A DNA stretch of 64,000 nucleotides. Source: Patescibacteria group bacterium (GTDB lineage Bacteria > Patescibacteriota > Gracilibacteria > UBA1369 > UBA12470). The translations under genes and the position numbers were made by a program. The notes under the pieces were generated by a model. The model was not told the origin of the DNA. It saw nothing but the letters and a program-made list of their open reading frames with translations, and did not search any database. Below, in pieces: positions 31,162-34,453 of this stretch (within the stretch, counting starts at the first letter, position 1; the number at the start of each line of letters is the position of its first letter). Location of the stretch: assembly GCA_018816885.1 (NCBI GenBank), contig JAHIUS010000021.1:39092-103091 (forward strand). The letters are read 5' to 3'.

Positions 31162-32526
31162 TCAAATTTCTTCCTCATATAGCACAGGTTCATCCGGATA
31201 ATCCCACCACCAAGACTGCATAACCTCGCTCGCCAAAGGCACAACAACATAATCATCGCTTCCGATAACAGGGAAAACATAGGCCGGAACATAAACCTCA
31301 AAACTTTCATAATCATCATAAACCCAGTGCTGCATATACTGCATAGAAGGAGTGTCCAGCTCAAGCACAGTGTTTTCATCATAAACCCAGTCATAACGAT
31401 ACCAGCCGTCAACACCGCCTTCTTCCGCAGCAGCCAAAATATCCTCAATACTCGCAGCTTCATAAGAAGAGCTTTCGTAAACATGAGATTTTATACCGTA
31501 AACATAAGACACCAGCATATCGGGAATATAAACGGTAGCCGTAATCCCCATCTTGCCACCCCACTCGGAATAGACATGCTTCCCATCGATTTCAAGAGGA
31601 TAAACAACATCCACATAATCAGGCACCCATCCATCATAGTAATAATATTCATCATCGTAATGATTGACCTCGGCTTCACCATGCCCCTGGAGAGAAATAC
31701 CGGTTTTATTGATAAAATCATCAGCCACGGCGATCAAAACATCATCAGGCGGCATGGAAGTCACGGACTCCCAATAATTCCACATATTGGGATCCCAATA
31801 ACTGATAGATATTTCACTATTTGCAAAGTCCGCATAGACCGAATAACCCTCTCCGGAAGGAGGTGAAAGCTGAATATTGGAAAGTTCAAAATCTCCAAGT
31901 TTAGAAAGATCCATAAGCCCGAAATCAATATCCGCAAACATACTTCCGAGCTGTTTAGACAGACTTGTATCTTTTTTTCTCTTCAAAACCTCTACCGAAT
32001 CGGCAGAAAATGTAAGCTCATCTCCAGCATAGGTGTAAGAGTAGTAGGGGTAATAGTAATCATCATAATAAGGTTCGATAGACGCATCTTCATCGGAAAC
32101 CGCAGCTTTTTCCTCAGAAATCATGCCTCCTCCTCGTCCCGCATCGGTACTCGACAAAGCCGCATCTTCCGCGGAAAACCCATCACCCGAAAGCGACCCA
32201 AAAGCATTTTCCGAGACAGATTCAATCTTAAACTCCCCAAAACTCACGATTGGCTTCTCCAGTCCGGCAAAATAAATAACCGGAACCATAATTACAGCGA
32301 AAACAGCCGCCCCCGCAAAAGCGAAAATCGGCCACTTAACCCGAGGCGCATCCTTTATCTCATCAATCCGCGCCCAAACCTTTTCCCTCAGCTCTGCCTT
32401 GAAGGATTCGCTCAGCTCAATATCGGGTTTAGCCACAAGCAGTTCCTTCAAGAGAACCTTCAGCACCTTCTCATGCTTTTTGAGCTCGGGATCGCTCGCA
32501 TACAGCTCTTCAAGTATTTTTTCCAT
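31162..32526 (-). CDS. Probable membrane anti-sigma factor with extracytoplasmic domain
   Basis: Directly follows the ECF sigma; short N-terminal domain (P..SESFKAELRE), TM helix, Tyr/acidic outer domain. Confidence 0.65.
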   Translation of the reverse strand: MEKILEELYASDPELKKHEKVLKVLLKELLVAKPDIELSESFKAELREKVWARIDEIKDAPRVKWPIFAFAGAAVFAVIMVPVIYFAGLEKPIVSFGEFKIESVSENAFGSLSGDGFSAEDAALSSTDAGRGGGMISEEKAAVSDEDASIEPYYDDYYYPYYSYTYAGDELTFSADSVEVLKRKKDTSLSKQLGSMFADIDFGLMDLSKLGDFELSNIQLSPPSGEGYSVYADFANSEISISYWDPNMWNYWESVTSMPPDDVLIAVADDFINKTGISLQGHGEAEVNHYDDEYYYYDGWVPDYVDVVYPLEIDGKHVYSEWGGKMGITATVYIPDMLVSYVYGIKSHVYESSSYEAASIEDILAAAEEGGVDGWYRYDWVYDENTVLELDTPSMQYMQHWVYDDYESFEVYVPAYVFPVIGSDDYVVVPLASEVMQSWWWDYPDEPVLYEEEI

Positions 32527-32530
32527 GATT

Positions 32531-33073
32531 TTATTTGATTAAAAAAATAAAAGATAAAATAAAAGTCAAAACGGTAATATGCTCCTGCAATTTCTTAACA
32601 GACCGTGACAAAATCATCTTGCAATTCGCCTCGCTCTTACCAATAATCTCGGCAATCTCCTTGAAACTTAAACCATCCCAAAGTCGCATAATAATAATCT
32701 CTTTCGCCTCAGGCTTCAGAATAGAAAGAGCTTCCTTAAACTTCTCAAAATCCAGCTTAATCGAAACCTCTTTTTCAATGTCTTCAGAGGAACTGACGGA
32801 AAAAGCCGCCTCCAGATCAACATGCTGCTTTTTACTCCTGTAAAAATCGGTCAAACTATTCCGCGCAATCCGATAAAGCCACCCTTGAAAAGATCCCTTC
32901 CCGGGACGGAAAGTATGGAACTTCTGAGCCGCCTTTAGAAAAGTCTGACTTGTAACCTCCTCGGAAGTGTTTTTATCCTGAGTCCGATAAAAAACGAAAT
33001 TATAGATCTTCGAAAAAAACTCATCATACATCTCGCCGAACTCCGAAAGATTTTGTGGGTTTTCATTCATCAT
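32531..33073 (-). CDS. ECF RNA polymerase sigma factor
   Basis: EEVTSQTFLKA, FQGWLYRIARN, GLSFKEIAEIIG HTH. Confidence 0.93.
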   Translation of the reverse strand: MMNENPQNLSEFGEMYDEFFSKIYNFVFYRTQDKNTSEEVTSQTFLKAAQKFHTFRPGKGSFQGWLYRIARNSLTDFYRSKKQHVDLEAAFSVSSSEDIEKEVSIKLDFEKFKEALSILKPEAKEIIIMRLWDGLSFKEIAEIIGKSEANCKMILSRSVKKLQEHITVLTFILSFIFLIK

Positions 33074-33084
33074 TCATCAATATA

Positions 33085-33110
33085 TACGGAAGTCACCGGA
33101 AAAAGTAACA
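33085..33110 (-). promoter_or_regulatory. Putative ECF autoregulatory promoter
   Basis: TGTTAC-N16-CGTA just upstream of the sigma gene, similar to the B. subtilis SigW-type TGAAAC-N16-CGTA. Confidence 0.55.
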
Positions 33111-33117
33111 GATTTCC

Positions 33118-33146
33118 TTGAAAAAACAGGAAAAACACTTTAAATT
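33118..33146 (+). promoter_or_regulatory. Putative sigma70 promoter of the tRNA-Gln locus
   Basis: TTGAAA-N17-TAAATT. Confidence 0.5.
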
Positions 33147-33166
33147 AACCGCGCAGTACAAGGTAA

Positions 33167-33243
33167 TGGGGCGTGGCCAATCGAAGATCCCGCCATGGCG
33201 GGAGTGGTAAGGCACTCCGCCAAGGCGGGGCATTCGGGGGTTC
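33167..33243 (+). pseudogene. Degenerate 5' copy of tRNA-Gln with palindromic insertions
   Basis: Matches tRNA nt 1-14, 15-26 and 41-55 exactly; 23-nt insert in the D-loop; anticodon arm replaced by a CCGCCAAGGCGG hairpin; ends in the T-loop. Confidence 0.85.
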
Positions 33244-33251
33244 AATAAGAT

Positions 33252-33516
33252 ATGTTTCATCTATATATATATATTACAAAGCGAAAAAGATAAGAGACTA
33301 TACATAGGTCAGACCAATAATTTGGAAGACAGATTGAAAAGACATAATACAGGTCAAGTAAAAGCAACTAGAAATAGAAAACCACTTAAGTTAATATATC
33401 ACAAGAAATATAAAAAAAGAGCTGAAGCAATGGAAATGGAAAAGTACCTTAAAAGATTGAAAGGCGGGAATGAGTTTAAAAGGCTCTTACATCAATGGGG
33501 CGTGGCCAAGTGGTAA
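33252..33516 (+). pseudogene. Small GIY-YIG endonuclease, frameshifted in a (TA)6 tract
   Basis: YILQS...LYIGQTNNLEDRLKRHN...AMEMEKYLK; the ATG at 33252 is out of frame; the stop lies inside the tRNA D-loop. Confidence 0.85.
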
Positions 33517-34310
33517 GGCACCTGGTTTTGGTCCAGGCATTCGGGGGTTCGAATCCCTCCGCCCCAGCCATCTCGGATATTGCGATTTTTCCGCGGATTT
33601 TTGGTATGGAATTTCCAGGCGGCAAGCCACTTTTTGCCGCCTGAGCTGAAAGTTCGAGCCGATTTTTTGCAAGAAGCTTCGCTTCTCTTCCAAATTTTCG
33701 GTGTTCGCTGCGCGAACGGCTTGGTGAGCCGATAAAATCCATTCTTTAAATGGTTCGAGCCAATTATTTCCCTTCCGCCCAAACTTGAGCTTTTCTTTTA
33801 GGTCTATCTTGGAATTTATGATTTTTTCTTTGGCTTTTGTATATTCTTCCTCGGATATTGTTTGGTCGAGGTATGCGTCTAAGAGTCGCATTTGTTTTTC
33901 TTCTATGGTTTTTAGTTCTTGCTTGAGGTTTTTGGCGGAAGGTTTAGCGGTTTGAGCTTTTTTATAATCCTTCTGCCATTCTCGGAGAAATTTGTCTTTT
34001 AAGTCATCGTTCAAAGCAACTTTTTGGAAAAGCTGATTGAGTTGTTCAGTTAGTGGTTGTTCTTCCAGATACTTTTGGTGACAAATAACATTCTTTTTAG
34101 TGCAGCGGTAATAGGTGTAAGTGCGGCCTGACTTCTTGATTTTCTTTTCCGCTGTTACGGAGCGGCCGCACTCACCGCAATTGAATGTTTTACGAAAAGC
34201 AAAAGCCAACTTTACTTTTGCTTTTCGTGGCTTACCTCTCTGCTCCATTACTCGCTGCACCTTGTCAAAAAGTCGCTTTGAAATAATTGGCTCGTGAGAA
34301 CCTTGATTAT
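33487..34310 (-). mobile_element. Remnant of a large serine recombinase (zinc-ribbon and coiled-coil part only)
   Basis: GSHEPIISKRLFDKVQ, CGECG...YYRC...C zinc ribbon, coiled coil; no N-terminal catalytic domain; C-terminus reads antisense through the tRNA. Confidence 0.85.
33496..33570 (+). tRNA. tRNA-Gln (TTG)
   Basis: Full cloverleaf: TGGGGCG/CGCCCCA acceptor stem, CCTGG-TT TTG GT-CCAGG anticodon arm, GTTCGAATC T-loop, encoded CCA. Confidence 0.97.
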
Positions 34311-34453
34311 TGTGAACAGGATACCTTGGCGATGGTGAAGATATTTGAGGTTTTGAAGGGGTTGTAGTTTTCGGGAATAATCCCCCTTCCTTGCGCTTCA
34401 AGGTTAAATGCGCTACTATCGACAGGTTAAGCGCTTAAAAAAACTGCAAAAAA

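Follow-up and report, generated by a model that had tools for sequence, protein, structure and literature searches.

The closest described systems are the Ssn nucleases, which were characterised in 2025. According to the main text of Chenal et al. (2025; PMC11893778), SsnA of Neisseria meningitidis is a single-domain GIY-YIG enzyme of 94 residues (CDD cd10448), which requires single-stranded DNA (ssDNA) to bind the NTS hairpin (core TTCCCGCG...GCGGGAA), cuts just upstream of it, and does not bind RNA. Hairpins of this kind usually flank the genes of SsnA homologues, with a specificity particular to each; in the same text, the authors raise an origin like that of insertion sequences (IS) for the hairpin–ssnA–hairpin layout and leave the biological role outside Neisseria open (PMC11893778). 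The present analysis concerns a stretch of 64,000 nt, hereafter the window, from a Patescibacteria group bacterium of the Gracilibacteria (GenBank assembly GCA_018816885.1, contig JAHIUS010000021.1, positions 39,092–103,091), in which a small GIY-YIG gene lies between an intact tRNA-Gln(UUG) gene and a hairpin-bearing partial copy of the same tRNA. By analogy, this is an Ssn-like nuclease–hairpin pair residing in tRNA genes. We consider it rather probable that the locus represents one copy of a selfish cassette of ~330 bp, which lives in tRNA genes and makes use of ssDNA recognition between nuclease and hairpin together with recombination.

The intact tRNA-Gln(UUG) gene was located at positions 33496–33570 of the plus strand—the strand of all features described below unless stated otherwise—and was recognised both by ARAGORN and by Rfam (RF00005, 64.3 bits, match 33496–33567). 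It was the only tRNA gene called by ARAGORN in the 64-kb window and the only tRNA-Gln(UUG) gene found in the genome (1.26 Mb, 43% G+C, 38 tRNAs by ARAGORN). A partial copy of nucleotides 1–55 of this tRNA (33167–33243), starting 329 nt upstream of the intact gene, was traced by alignment and BLAST; it contained one insert and one replacement and lacked the 3' strands of the T stem and the acceptor stem. The copy consisted of three segments, corresponding to tRNA nt 1–14 (33167–33180), nt 15–26 (33204–33215; the BLAST segment covered nt 14–26), and nt 43–55 (33231–33243, or from nt 41 at 33229), each with 100% identity, and the likeness stopped after GGTTC. At the D-loop position, a 23-nt insert (33181–33203) contained the perfect 16-nt palindrome TCCCGCCATGGCGGGA (33188–33203; stem 8, loop 0), while the 16-nt anticodon arm (tRNA nt 27–42) was substituted by the 15-nt hairpin TCCGCCAAGGCGGGG (33216–33230). 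An earlier interpretation made from the letters of the window (the sequence-only reading) had described a copy free of scattered point changes but carrying two precise edits, a palindromic D-loop insert and an anticodon-arm hairpin; alignment and BLAST confirmed both edits and revealed no point changes in the matched segments. The two palindromes (33188–33230) are alike and hence able to pair with one another. The predicted single-strand fold of 33167–33250 was one long composite hairpin, not two small ones (−22.1 kcal/mol).

The GIY-YIG frame occupied positions 33253–33516 (87 codons and a TAA stop) without internal stops, and its end, WGVAKW followed by TAA, was formed by the first 21 nt of the intact tRNA-Gln. 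The stop-to-stop frame (33211–33516, 101 residues) matched PF01541 (GIY-YIG) with an E-value of 4.3e-18 and 65.8 bits over residues 17–85. Thus, the position of a GIY-YIG gene between the edited copy and the intact tRNA, ending inside the latter as the sequence-only reading had it, was supported by ARAGORN, alignment, and the profile match. GIY-YIG was the sole domain matched in this frame, the size of which fits the single-domain class of ~90–100 residues. Residues Y6, Y17, G19, R27, H31, and E63, which we take to be the catalytic residues of the GIY-YIG family, were invariant among three aligned proteins. NCBIfam gave nothing above its cut-offs for the nuclease of the window; the group I intron endonuclease model TIGR01453 matched with 22.7 bits against a cut-off of 56.05, over profile positions 4–40 of 215.

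The closest solved structures by sequence were PDB 1zg2 (BH0048, E=1e-9) and 1ywl (EF2693, E=5e-9), both belonging to UPF0213. Proteins of this family, including YazA of Bacillus subtilis, have the same size as the window nuclease and likewise consist of a single domain. The genome of the window (G000) itself encoded a UPF0213/YhbQ-like GIY-YIG gene (C52:4059–4280, L109/L010), the product of which was 35% identical to the window nuclease; orthologues were present in the genomes G001, G002, and G004, and the UPF0213-like genes as a whole showed 35–39% identity to it. None of the four UPF0213-like genes inspected (L007–L010) had a tRNA within 1.5 kb or a GC palindrome within ~400 nt on either side.

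The cassette of the window shares several traits with the Ssn systems as these are presented in the main text of PMC11893778: a single-domain GIY-YIG protein of ~90 residues (a comparison made by description, not with the SsnA sequence), short GC hairpins beside the gene with a core of the TCCCG...CGGGA type, a hairpin type specific to the nuclease lineage, and, in the genome of the window, multiplication of the hairpin genome-wide, mainly in intergenic DNA. The two palindromes lie 22–65 nt upstream of the ATG, which resembles the flanking of ssn genes by hairpin-forming inverted repeats of 20–50 nt. Unlike the Ssn layout described in that text, the cassette hairpin sits in a partial tRNA copy, and the gene lies within the tRNA transcription unit. 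The term "tRNA" does not occur in the main text of PMC11893778, the supplements of which might list tRNA contexts; no description of a tRNA-lodged GIY-YIG/hairpin cassette was found in the literature searched by title and the start of the abstract.

A scan of species-representative genomes yielded 80 loci, which together with those of G000 and G005 made up 82 distinct homologous loci, hosted by bacteria of the candidate phyla radiation (CPR), Bacteroidota, Ignavibacteriota, and Calditrichota. The sequence-only reading had anticipated that small GIY-YIG genes would be associated with flanking tRNA duplications and palindromes, and the survey agreed with this expectation. A same-strand tRNA gene lay within 150 nt of the open reading frame (ORF) at 62 of the 82 loci, and an opposite-strand one at none; the tRNA was downstream of the ORF in 33 and upstream in 29. 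The far flank contained a partial copy of the adjacent tRNA in 53 of these 62 loci (a segment of this tRNA, at E≤0.001, within the 130 nt beyond the opposite end of the ORF), and a GC palindrome (perfect, GC-rich, stem of at least 6, loop of at most 6) was present there in 44 of 61 cassettes versus 37 of 977 control windows from the same loci, counts that overstate their statistical weight because related loci are not independent. In the 22 alignments of the "tRNA downstream" type, the palindrome was placed in the D-loop or took the place of the anticodon or T arm; the hairpin copy followed the ORF in the 29 cassettes of the "tRNA upstream" type. An independent set of 19 metagenome loci of the Joint Genome Institute (JGI) had an adjacent tRNA in 15, with a palindrome in 9 of those 15.

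The layout was reproduced most closely in genome G006, which belongs to another genus of the same family: a 59% identical nuclease at tRNA-Gln(CUG), with tRNA nt 1–27 and 41–57 copied exactly, the anticodon arm replaced by GTCCGCACTGCGGAC (L005/L014), and the ORF ending WGVAKW-stop within the tRNA. The same arm was replaced by CCCCGCC-NN-GGCGGGG in the tRNA-Gln cassettes L012, L013, L015, L016, and L018, so that the substitution of the anticodon arm recurs in other genera and phyla. In G005, a 39% identical nuclease preceded tRNA-Leu(UAG), and the 5' copy of this tRNA carried the 20-nt palindrome CCTGCCTGCCGGCAGGCAGG in its D-loop.

A tree of the nucleases was built with 77 rows, five sequences (L045, L066, L070, L086, and L088) being left out as short or broken. 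The identity of the associated tRNA changed 22 times on this tree versus 35–41 times in ten of 200 shuffles, a count that is descriptive because kin share labels. The clade of the window nuclease comprised twelve rows, ten of which were tRNA-Gln cassettes; the other two (L011 and L023) lacked a tRNA within 150 nt, and the L011 sequence stops 5 nt past the ORF. Hosts of this clade were Peregrinibacteria, Moranbacteria, Parcubacteria, and Yanofskybacteria, with L023 coming from Gracilibacteria. In general, a nuclease clade retained the same tRNA species and hairpin type even where its hosts belonged to different phyla. The tRNA-Gln group had CCCGCC-NN-GGCGGG, the four flavobacterial tRNA-Asp cassettes TCCCGAG-NN-CTCGGGA, the tRNA-Leu/Arg group variants of CCTGCC(TGCC)-GGCAGG, and the three cassettes of Saccharibacteria and Giovannonibacteria TCCCGC-N-GCGGGA. 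As a separate observation, the nuclease cassette was repeated at least four times in tandem on a contig of a metagenome-assembled genome (MAG) of Bacteroidetes (L089, 907–2778; period ~460 nt, 90–96% identity), and a cassette nearly identical to it occurred in a MAG labelled Ignavibacteriaceae (L081).

Homology between hosts was limited to the cassette. L015 and L019 were 92% identical across the whole unit, from where the partial copy begins to where the tRNA ends, and did not match outside it, and the DNA match between the window locus (L004) and L012 was confined to 33203–33570. The hairpin and the tRNA segment following it were identical in L015, L016, L018, and L019, although the resident tRNAs differ at those positions; this part therefore moves together with the ORF, as would be expected of a hairpin inherited as a component of the element. 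Only part of the selfish, tRNA-targeting element envisaged by the sequence-only reading was upheld. A recurrent unit in several phyla, the absence of an integrase inside it, the cassette-limited homology, and an identical tRNA free of the cassette in a sister genome speak for such an element. Deposition of target-protecting palindromes by the nuclease stays conjectural beside a hairpin that tracks the clade, is constant within a lineage, and has ~20 copies elsewhere in the genome. The palindromic inserts were also considered as footprints of hairpin opening that copied the adjacent tRNA; this was rejected by eye, the inserts being unrelated to the flanking tRNA bases.

Cassette-free counterparts of the target were found among relatives: the sister genome G002 contained a 100% identical tRNA-Gln(UUG) and G001 a tRNA-Gln of 99% identity, neither of which had the cassette. 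The comparison with empty alleles foreseen in the sequence-only reading was thus possible for the tRNA gene but not for its surroundings. Because the genes around these two tRNAs show no synteny with the window, they do not qualify as orthologous empty sites in the strict sense; no such site was found, the upstream sigma-factor gene not being beside tRNA-Gln in any of G001–G004. Similarly, a scan of JGI metagenomes with the window protein gave best matches of 58–61% identity and neither an allele with an in-frame start nor an empty syntenic site.

Presence and absence at a conserved target among relatives is also a feature of homing enzymes, and the bacteriophage T4 enzyme SegB is a free-standing GIY-YIG homing endonuclease in a phage tRNA gene cluster. 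With such phage enzymes, the cassette shares the catalytic domain, residence at tRNA genes, patchy presence, and the lack of an integrase. Classical double-strand homing, in which the nuclease would cut the intact tRNA-Gln, repair of the double-strand break would copy the cassette, and the palindromes would make the element's own copy uncuttable, could therefore be considered; the cassette-free tRNA-Gln genes of G002 and G001, the cassette-limited homology, the fidelity of each nuclease clade to its own tRNA species, and the weak TIGR01453 match are in line with it. However, the full tRNA-Gln sequence, with every internal site, remains next to the nuclease gene, and hence the carrier allele would not be immune. 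SegB and I-TevI-type enzymes cut the double-stranded DNA of alleles lacking the gene and have a separate DNA-binding domain, which homing GIY-YIG enzymes need, while the nuclease of the window is a bare catalytic domain of 87 residues; nor do the phage enzymes have the hairpin and the partial tRNA duplication. The palindrome sequence itself, beyond mere disruption of the target, is conserved within clades and occurs far from tRNAs too. The intact target beside the gene and the missing DNA-binding domain make double-strand homing less likely, and we regard it as an improbable explanation, although the best placed of the alternatives.

The cassette favoured here would consist of a single-domain GIY-YIG gene and a tRNA-derived segment that carries a GC hairpin of the TCCCG...CGGGA or CCCGCC..GGCGGG type in place of one of its arms or loops. 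In the window, it would have been placed between the tRNA-Gln(UUG) promoter and the tRNA, leaving the intact tRNA downstream and the hairpin-bearing 5' copy upstream. By analogy with Ssn/NTS, the hairpin is most likely the ssDNA recognition site of the nuclease. A nick beside the hairpin, in tRNA-derived sequence, would render this segment recombinogenic, and homologous recombination of the host with a resident tRNA gene could then insert or copy the cassette. A single crossover within tRNA nt 1–26 between a cassette of the order nt 1–26, hairpin, nt 43–55, ORF and a resident tRNA would produce the order seen in the window, and a crossover 3' of the hairpin would produce the "tRNA upstream" type. 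Only products retaining an intact tRNA would survive, loss being presumably lethal for a single-copy tRNA gene. The D-loop hairpin splits the upstream repeat into 14 and 12 nt, which should hinder loss of the cassette by recombination between the repeats.

A bolder proposal is that the hairpin-substituted tRNA fragment and the GIY-YIG enzyme of ~85 residues form a complete autonomous mobile element of ~330 bp with a new mode of mobility, in which a hairpin guides the ssDNA nick, the universally conserved tRNA gene serves as a homology arm into unrelated genomes, and the dispersed intergenic hairpins are non-autonomous offspring; we put this forward tentatively, as a possibility that we doubt more than we believe. 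In comparison with the REP/BIME-RAYT and IS200/IS605 systems, as referred to in the main text of PMC11893778, the cassette likewise combines a small nuclease gene with palindromes forming ssDNA hairpins at many intergenic sites. Those systems, however, use HUH (Y1) transposases with covalent intermediates and do not have tRNA-derived flanks as a feature. A GIY-YIG hydrolase cannot join DNA alone, so host recombination or repair would have to complete any move.

The hairpin of the window was not restricted to the cassette. The sequence CCCGCCNNGGCGGG was present in 21 copies in G000, 11 in G001, 3 in G003, and 1 in G004, and was absent from G002, G005, G006, and G007; the reversed control gave 0 copies everywhere. 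In G000, ORFs of 120 aa or more make up 86% of the genome, and 18 of the 21 copies fell outside them; several copies lay within other tRNA-linked repeats. The hairpin of G006 occurred once in its genome, while that of G005 had 2 copies in G005, 9 in G001, and 1 in G000. Thus, the hairpin has expanded in particular lineages, without a strict link to a detected nuclease.

A number of tRNA-linked repeats outside the window, on contigs of G000 (C numbers) and in G003, deserve separate mention. Related inserts of 150–190 nt were observed after tRNA-Ser(GCU) (C65:15439–15613), 1.3 kb after tRNA-Gln(CUG) (C25:2962–3246), and in G003 (L094); they have in common GGTTCGAGC..CGAGGATAGCGAG...CCCCGCCTTGGCGGGG...GCGTCAT, contain no ORF, bear a hairpin, and are followed by a repeat of the last 16–17 nt of the tRNA. 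An element of ~130–190 nt resembling miniature inverted-repeat transposable elements (C21:17650–17865, C39:32380–32800, C66:19050–19262) begins a few bases past tRNA-Leu(UAA), tRNA-Arg(GCG), and tRNA-Ala(GGC); its ends are inverted-repeat-like (GGTTGTGATGAATTAT ... ATAATTATC.AAACC), its core is the CCCCGCCAAGGCGGGG hairpin, the same as that dispersed elsewhere, and in C39 it is present in two tandem copies, the first without the hairpin. At C34:16165–16320, possibly a decayed cassette, tRNA-Arg(UCU) stands behind an exact copy of its nt 1–23, a short GC inverted repeat, and ~130 nt of AT-rich, ORF-less DNA. Many of the dispersed CCCGCC(AA/TT)GGCGGG hairpins adjoin intergenic runs of GGGCAT/ATGCCC-type heptamers, for example, at C9:13499, C59:4326, C46:13053/36136/48129, and C39:18542/20030.

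Several results weigh against the proposed tRNA-resident cassette or against its likeness to Ssn. No ATG, GTG, or TTG start was found in the GIY-YIG frame ahead of the domain, and thus the copy of the window may be inactive. G001 contained 11 hairpins, yet the query found in it only the UPF0213-type gene and no nuclease of the cassette type; therefore, the spread of the hairpin need not depend on this nuclease. The survey, besides the dependence among its loci noted above, had a control that was not clean: tRNA-like segments were present in the flank beyond the tRNA in 18 of 62 loci, because extra partial copies or similar tRNAs nearby are present at some of them. A scan of viral contigs with the three-protein alignment gave 74 pattern matches and no relative, a result that is not firm on phage carriage. 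The published search motif for the SRM hairpins of the Ssn systems, HGTCWYN(0-2)YYVSBRHN(0-5)WNVSBRGN(0-2)RNCYNB, was not enriched: it had a single match in G000, away from the locus, as compared with 2–6 matches in five genomes simulated with a first-order Markov model. In addition, the hairpins of the window do not have the GTCWY flank of the SRM motif, and both lie on the 5' side of the ORF only, unlike the Ssn layout given in the main text of PMC11893778.

The only ATG (33252–33254) was out of the GIY-YIG frame, and its own frame stopped after 13 codons. In four homologues, the ATG was in frame. The distance from the ATG to a conserved AGC was 25 nt in the window versus 21 nt in L014, the extra bases being located at a (TA)6 run (33262–33273), which had the same length in contigs of three sequencing runs. 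Either the copy of the window has lost its activity recently, or it is phase-variable or uses an atypical start; it has probably begun to decay or become fixed at its site. Four features are particular to this copy: a start codon out of frame, a doubled hairpin, expansion of this hairpin across the genome, and a relative without the ORF in public sequencing runs (see below).

The position of the gene relative to the tRNA promoter bears on another explanation, according to which the hairpin-bearing tRNA fragment would act at the RNA level as a structured 5' leader, mimic, or processing element tuning expression of the nuclease or maturation of the tRNA. A promoter-like site, TTGAAA-17 nt-TAAATT (33118–33146, 9 of 12 consensus matches), was found ~20 nt before the partial copy. 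The promoter named in the sequence-only reading is thus present as a motif, and in G002 a similar TTGAAA...TATAAAT precedes the cassette-free tRNA-Gln at an equal distance; the number of promoter-like sites in the region was at the chance level (2 found, 1.7 expected). Probably, this site is the original promoter of tRNA-Gln. No terminator-like site was found by a consensus scan between it and the tRNA, and hence the tRNA is presumably transcribed through the cassette; a weak terminator-like hairpin with a T-run followed the tRNA (33580–33596; 1 found, 0.9 expected by chance).

Besides the promoter-like site and the lack of a terminator-like one, a role in RNA would agree with hairpins placed at tRNA arm and loop positions, which keeps a cloverleaf-like layout, with folding of 33167–33250 far better than that of shuffled sequences (z = −4.8; 0 of 200 shuffles), and with a stop codon inside the tRNA, by which processing of the tRNA 5' end would be expected to cut the mRNA. 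On the other hand, the partial copy (33167–33243) was not called by ARAGORN and had no tRNA or other Rfam match at E≤1, and it lacks the 3' strands of the acceptor and T stems; an anticodon-less tRNA mimic, which had been the second suggestion of the sequence-only reading, receives no support from these programs. SsnA does not bind RNA, as noted above from the main text of PMC11893778, and none of the RNA sequencing runs contained the locus (none held more than 0.07 of the sampled locus words). The copy stands after the ORF and is not a leader in 29 cassettes of the "tRNA upstream" type, and the identical hairpin is dispersed in intergenic DNA, which makes a purely RNA-level role less likely. 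We consider such a role improbable, slightly more so than double-strand homing.

Genomic islands that integrate into tRNA genes carry an integrase and are bordered by an attachment-site (att) repeat of the tRNA end. Such islands and the cassette have in common a tRNA gene as the target, partial duplication of it as a direct repeat, and retention of the intact tRNA; unlike in islands, the unit is of ~330 bp and the repeat is the 5' part of the tRNA interrupted by hairpins. No integrase was encoded between the tRNA repeats, where the 87-codon ORF was the only one. A 315-aa stop-to-stop frame on the minus strand (33487–34434), the last ~27 residues of which read antisense through tRNA-Gln, gave borderline matches to C-terminal parts of large serine recombinases (Zn_ribbon_recom, 25.2 bits with a cut-off of 25.3; Recombinase, 20.6 bits with a cut-off of 21.1); the catalytic N-terminal part was not seen in this frame. 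Probably, it is a remnant of an island that once used the 3' end of the tRNA.

It might accordingly be supposed that the whole locus is a passive relic, in which an integrase-borne island once integrated at tRNA-Gln and duplicated part of it as an att-type repeat, the GIY-YIG gene stayed behind as cargo, and unrelated REP-like palindromes of this genome later colonised the dead copy. The probable recombinase remnant abutting the tRNA, the CCCGCC..GGCGGG hairpin as a genome-wide intergenic repeat, and the other tRNA-linked repeats of G000 would suit this scenario. However, the recombinase lies outside the duplication, on the 3' side of the tRNA, while the duplicated part is the 5' one. The layout of ORF, partial copy, and hairpin recurs without a recombinase neighbour at L005 and at dozens of loci, and the hairpin takes the place of the anticodon arm, at an unchanged position, even where it is not genome-wide, as with the single copy in G006. 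A relic of an integrase is therefore unlikely, given a remnant that is outside the repeats and absent from homologous cassettes, and we rate it clearly below both double-strand homing and an RNA-level role.

A mis-joining of reads at the tRNA could in principle have produced the duplication, tRNAs being repeats in metagenomes and the depth climbing sharply over 33490–33570. Logan contigs from three runs of three studies, one of which may be the source of the window itself, each spanned 32950 to 33534 or 33565 unbroken, with 0 differences and 0 gaps; a fourth run gave a clean piece over 33193–33474. The unbroken identical contigs show that the duplication is not an assembly artefact, as the sequence-only reading had allowed it might be, and homologous loci in many assemblies share the layout; the likelihood left for an artefact is negligible. 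In the runs X2 and X4, one contig each joined 33243 to 33492 (4 nt before the tRNA), skipping a 248-nt segment of the ORF. Upstream of the join, these contigs had GTCGCC where the window has GTGGCC, and they hence derive from a relative, which looks like one carrying the hairpin-bearing partial copy followed directly by the tRNA, without the ORF.

The tRNA genes of ultra-small CPR bacteria, Bacteroidota, Ignavibacteriota, and Calditrichota thus appear as a second, very common habitat for nuclease–hairpin pairs. If mobile, the cassette would rank with the smallest self-contained mobile elements on record, and could account for the partial tRNA copies, repeats linked to tRNAs, and GC palindromes that are scattered over many genomes; its natural range of nuclease and hairpin specificities would also be a resource for ssDNA tools. 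For annotation, partial tRNA copies next to genes of a "GIY-YIG family protein" should not be taken for assembly errors. In the plasmid collection, tblastn returned two hits, both of the UPF0213/YazA type.

Regarding the neighbourhood on the other side of the cassette, the minus strand of the region 31162–33073 contained a gene for an extracytoplasmic function (ECF)-type sigma-70 factor (32531–33073; Sigma70_r2 and r4_2). It was followed by an ORF of 454 aa without a Pfam match, reading away from the cassette, the product of which is a possible anti-sigma partner.

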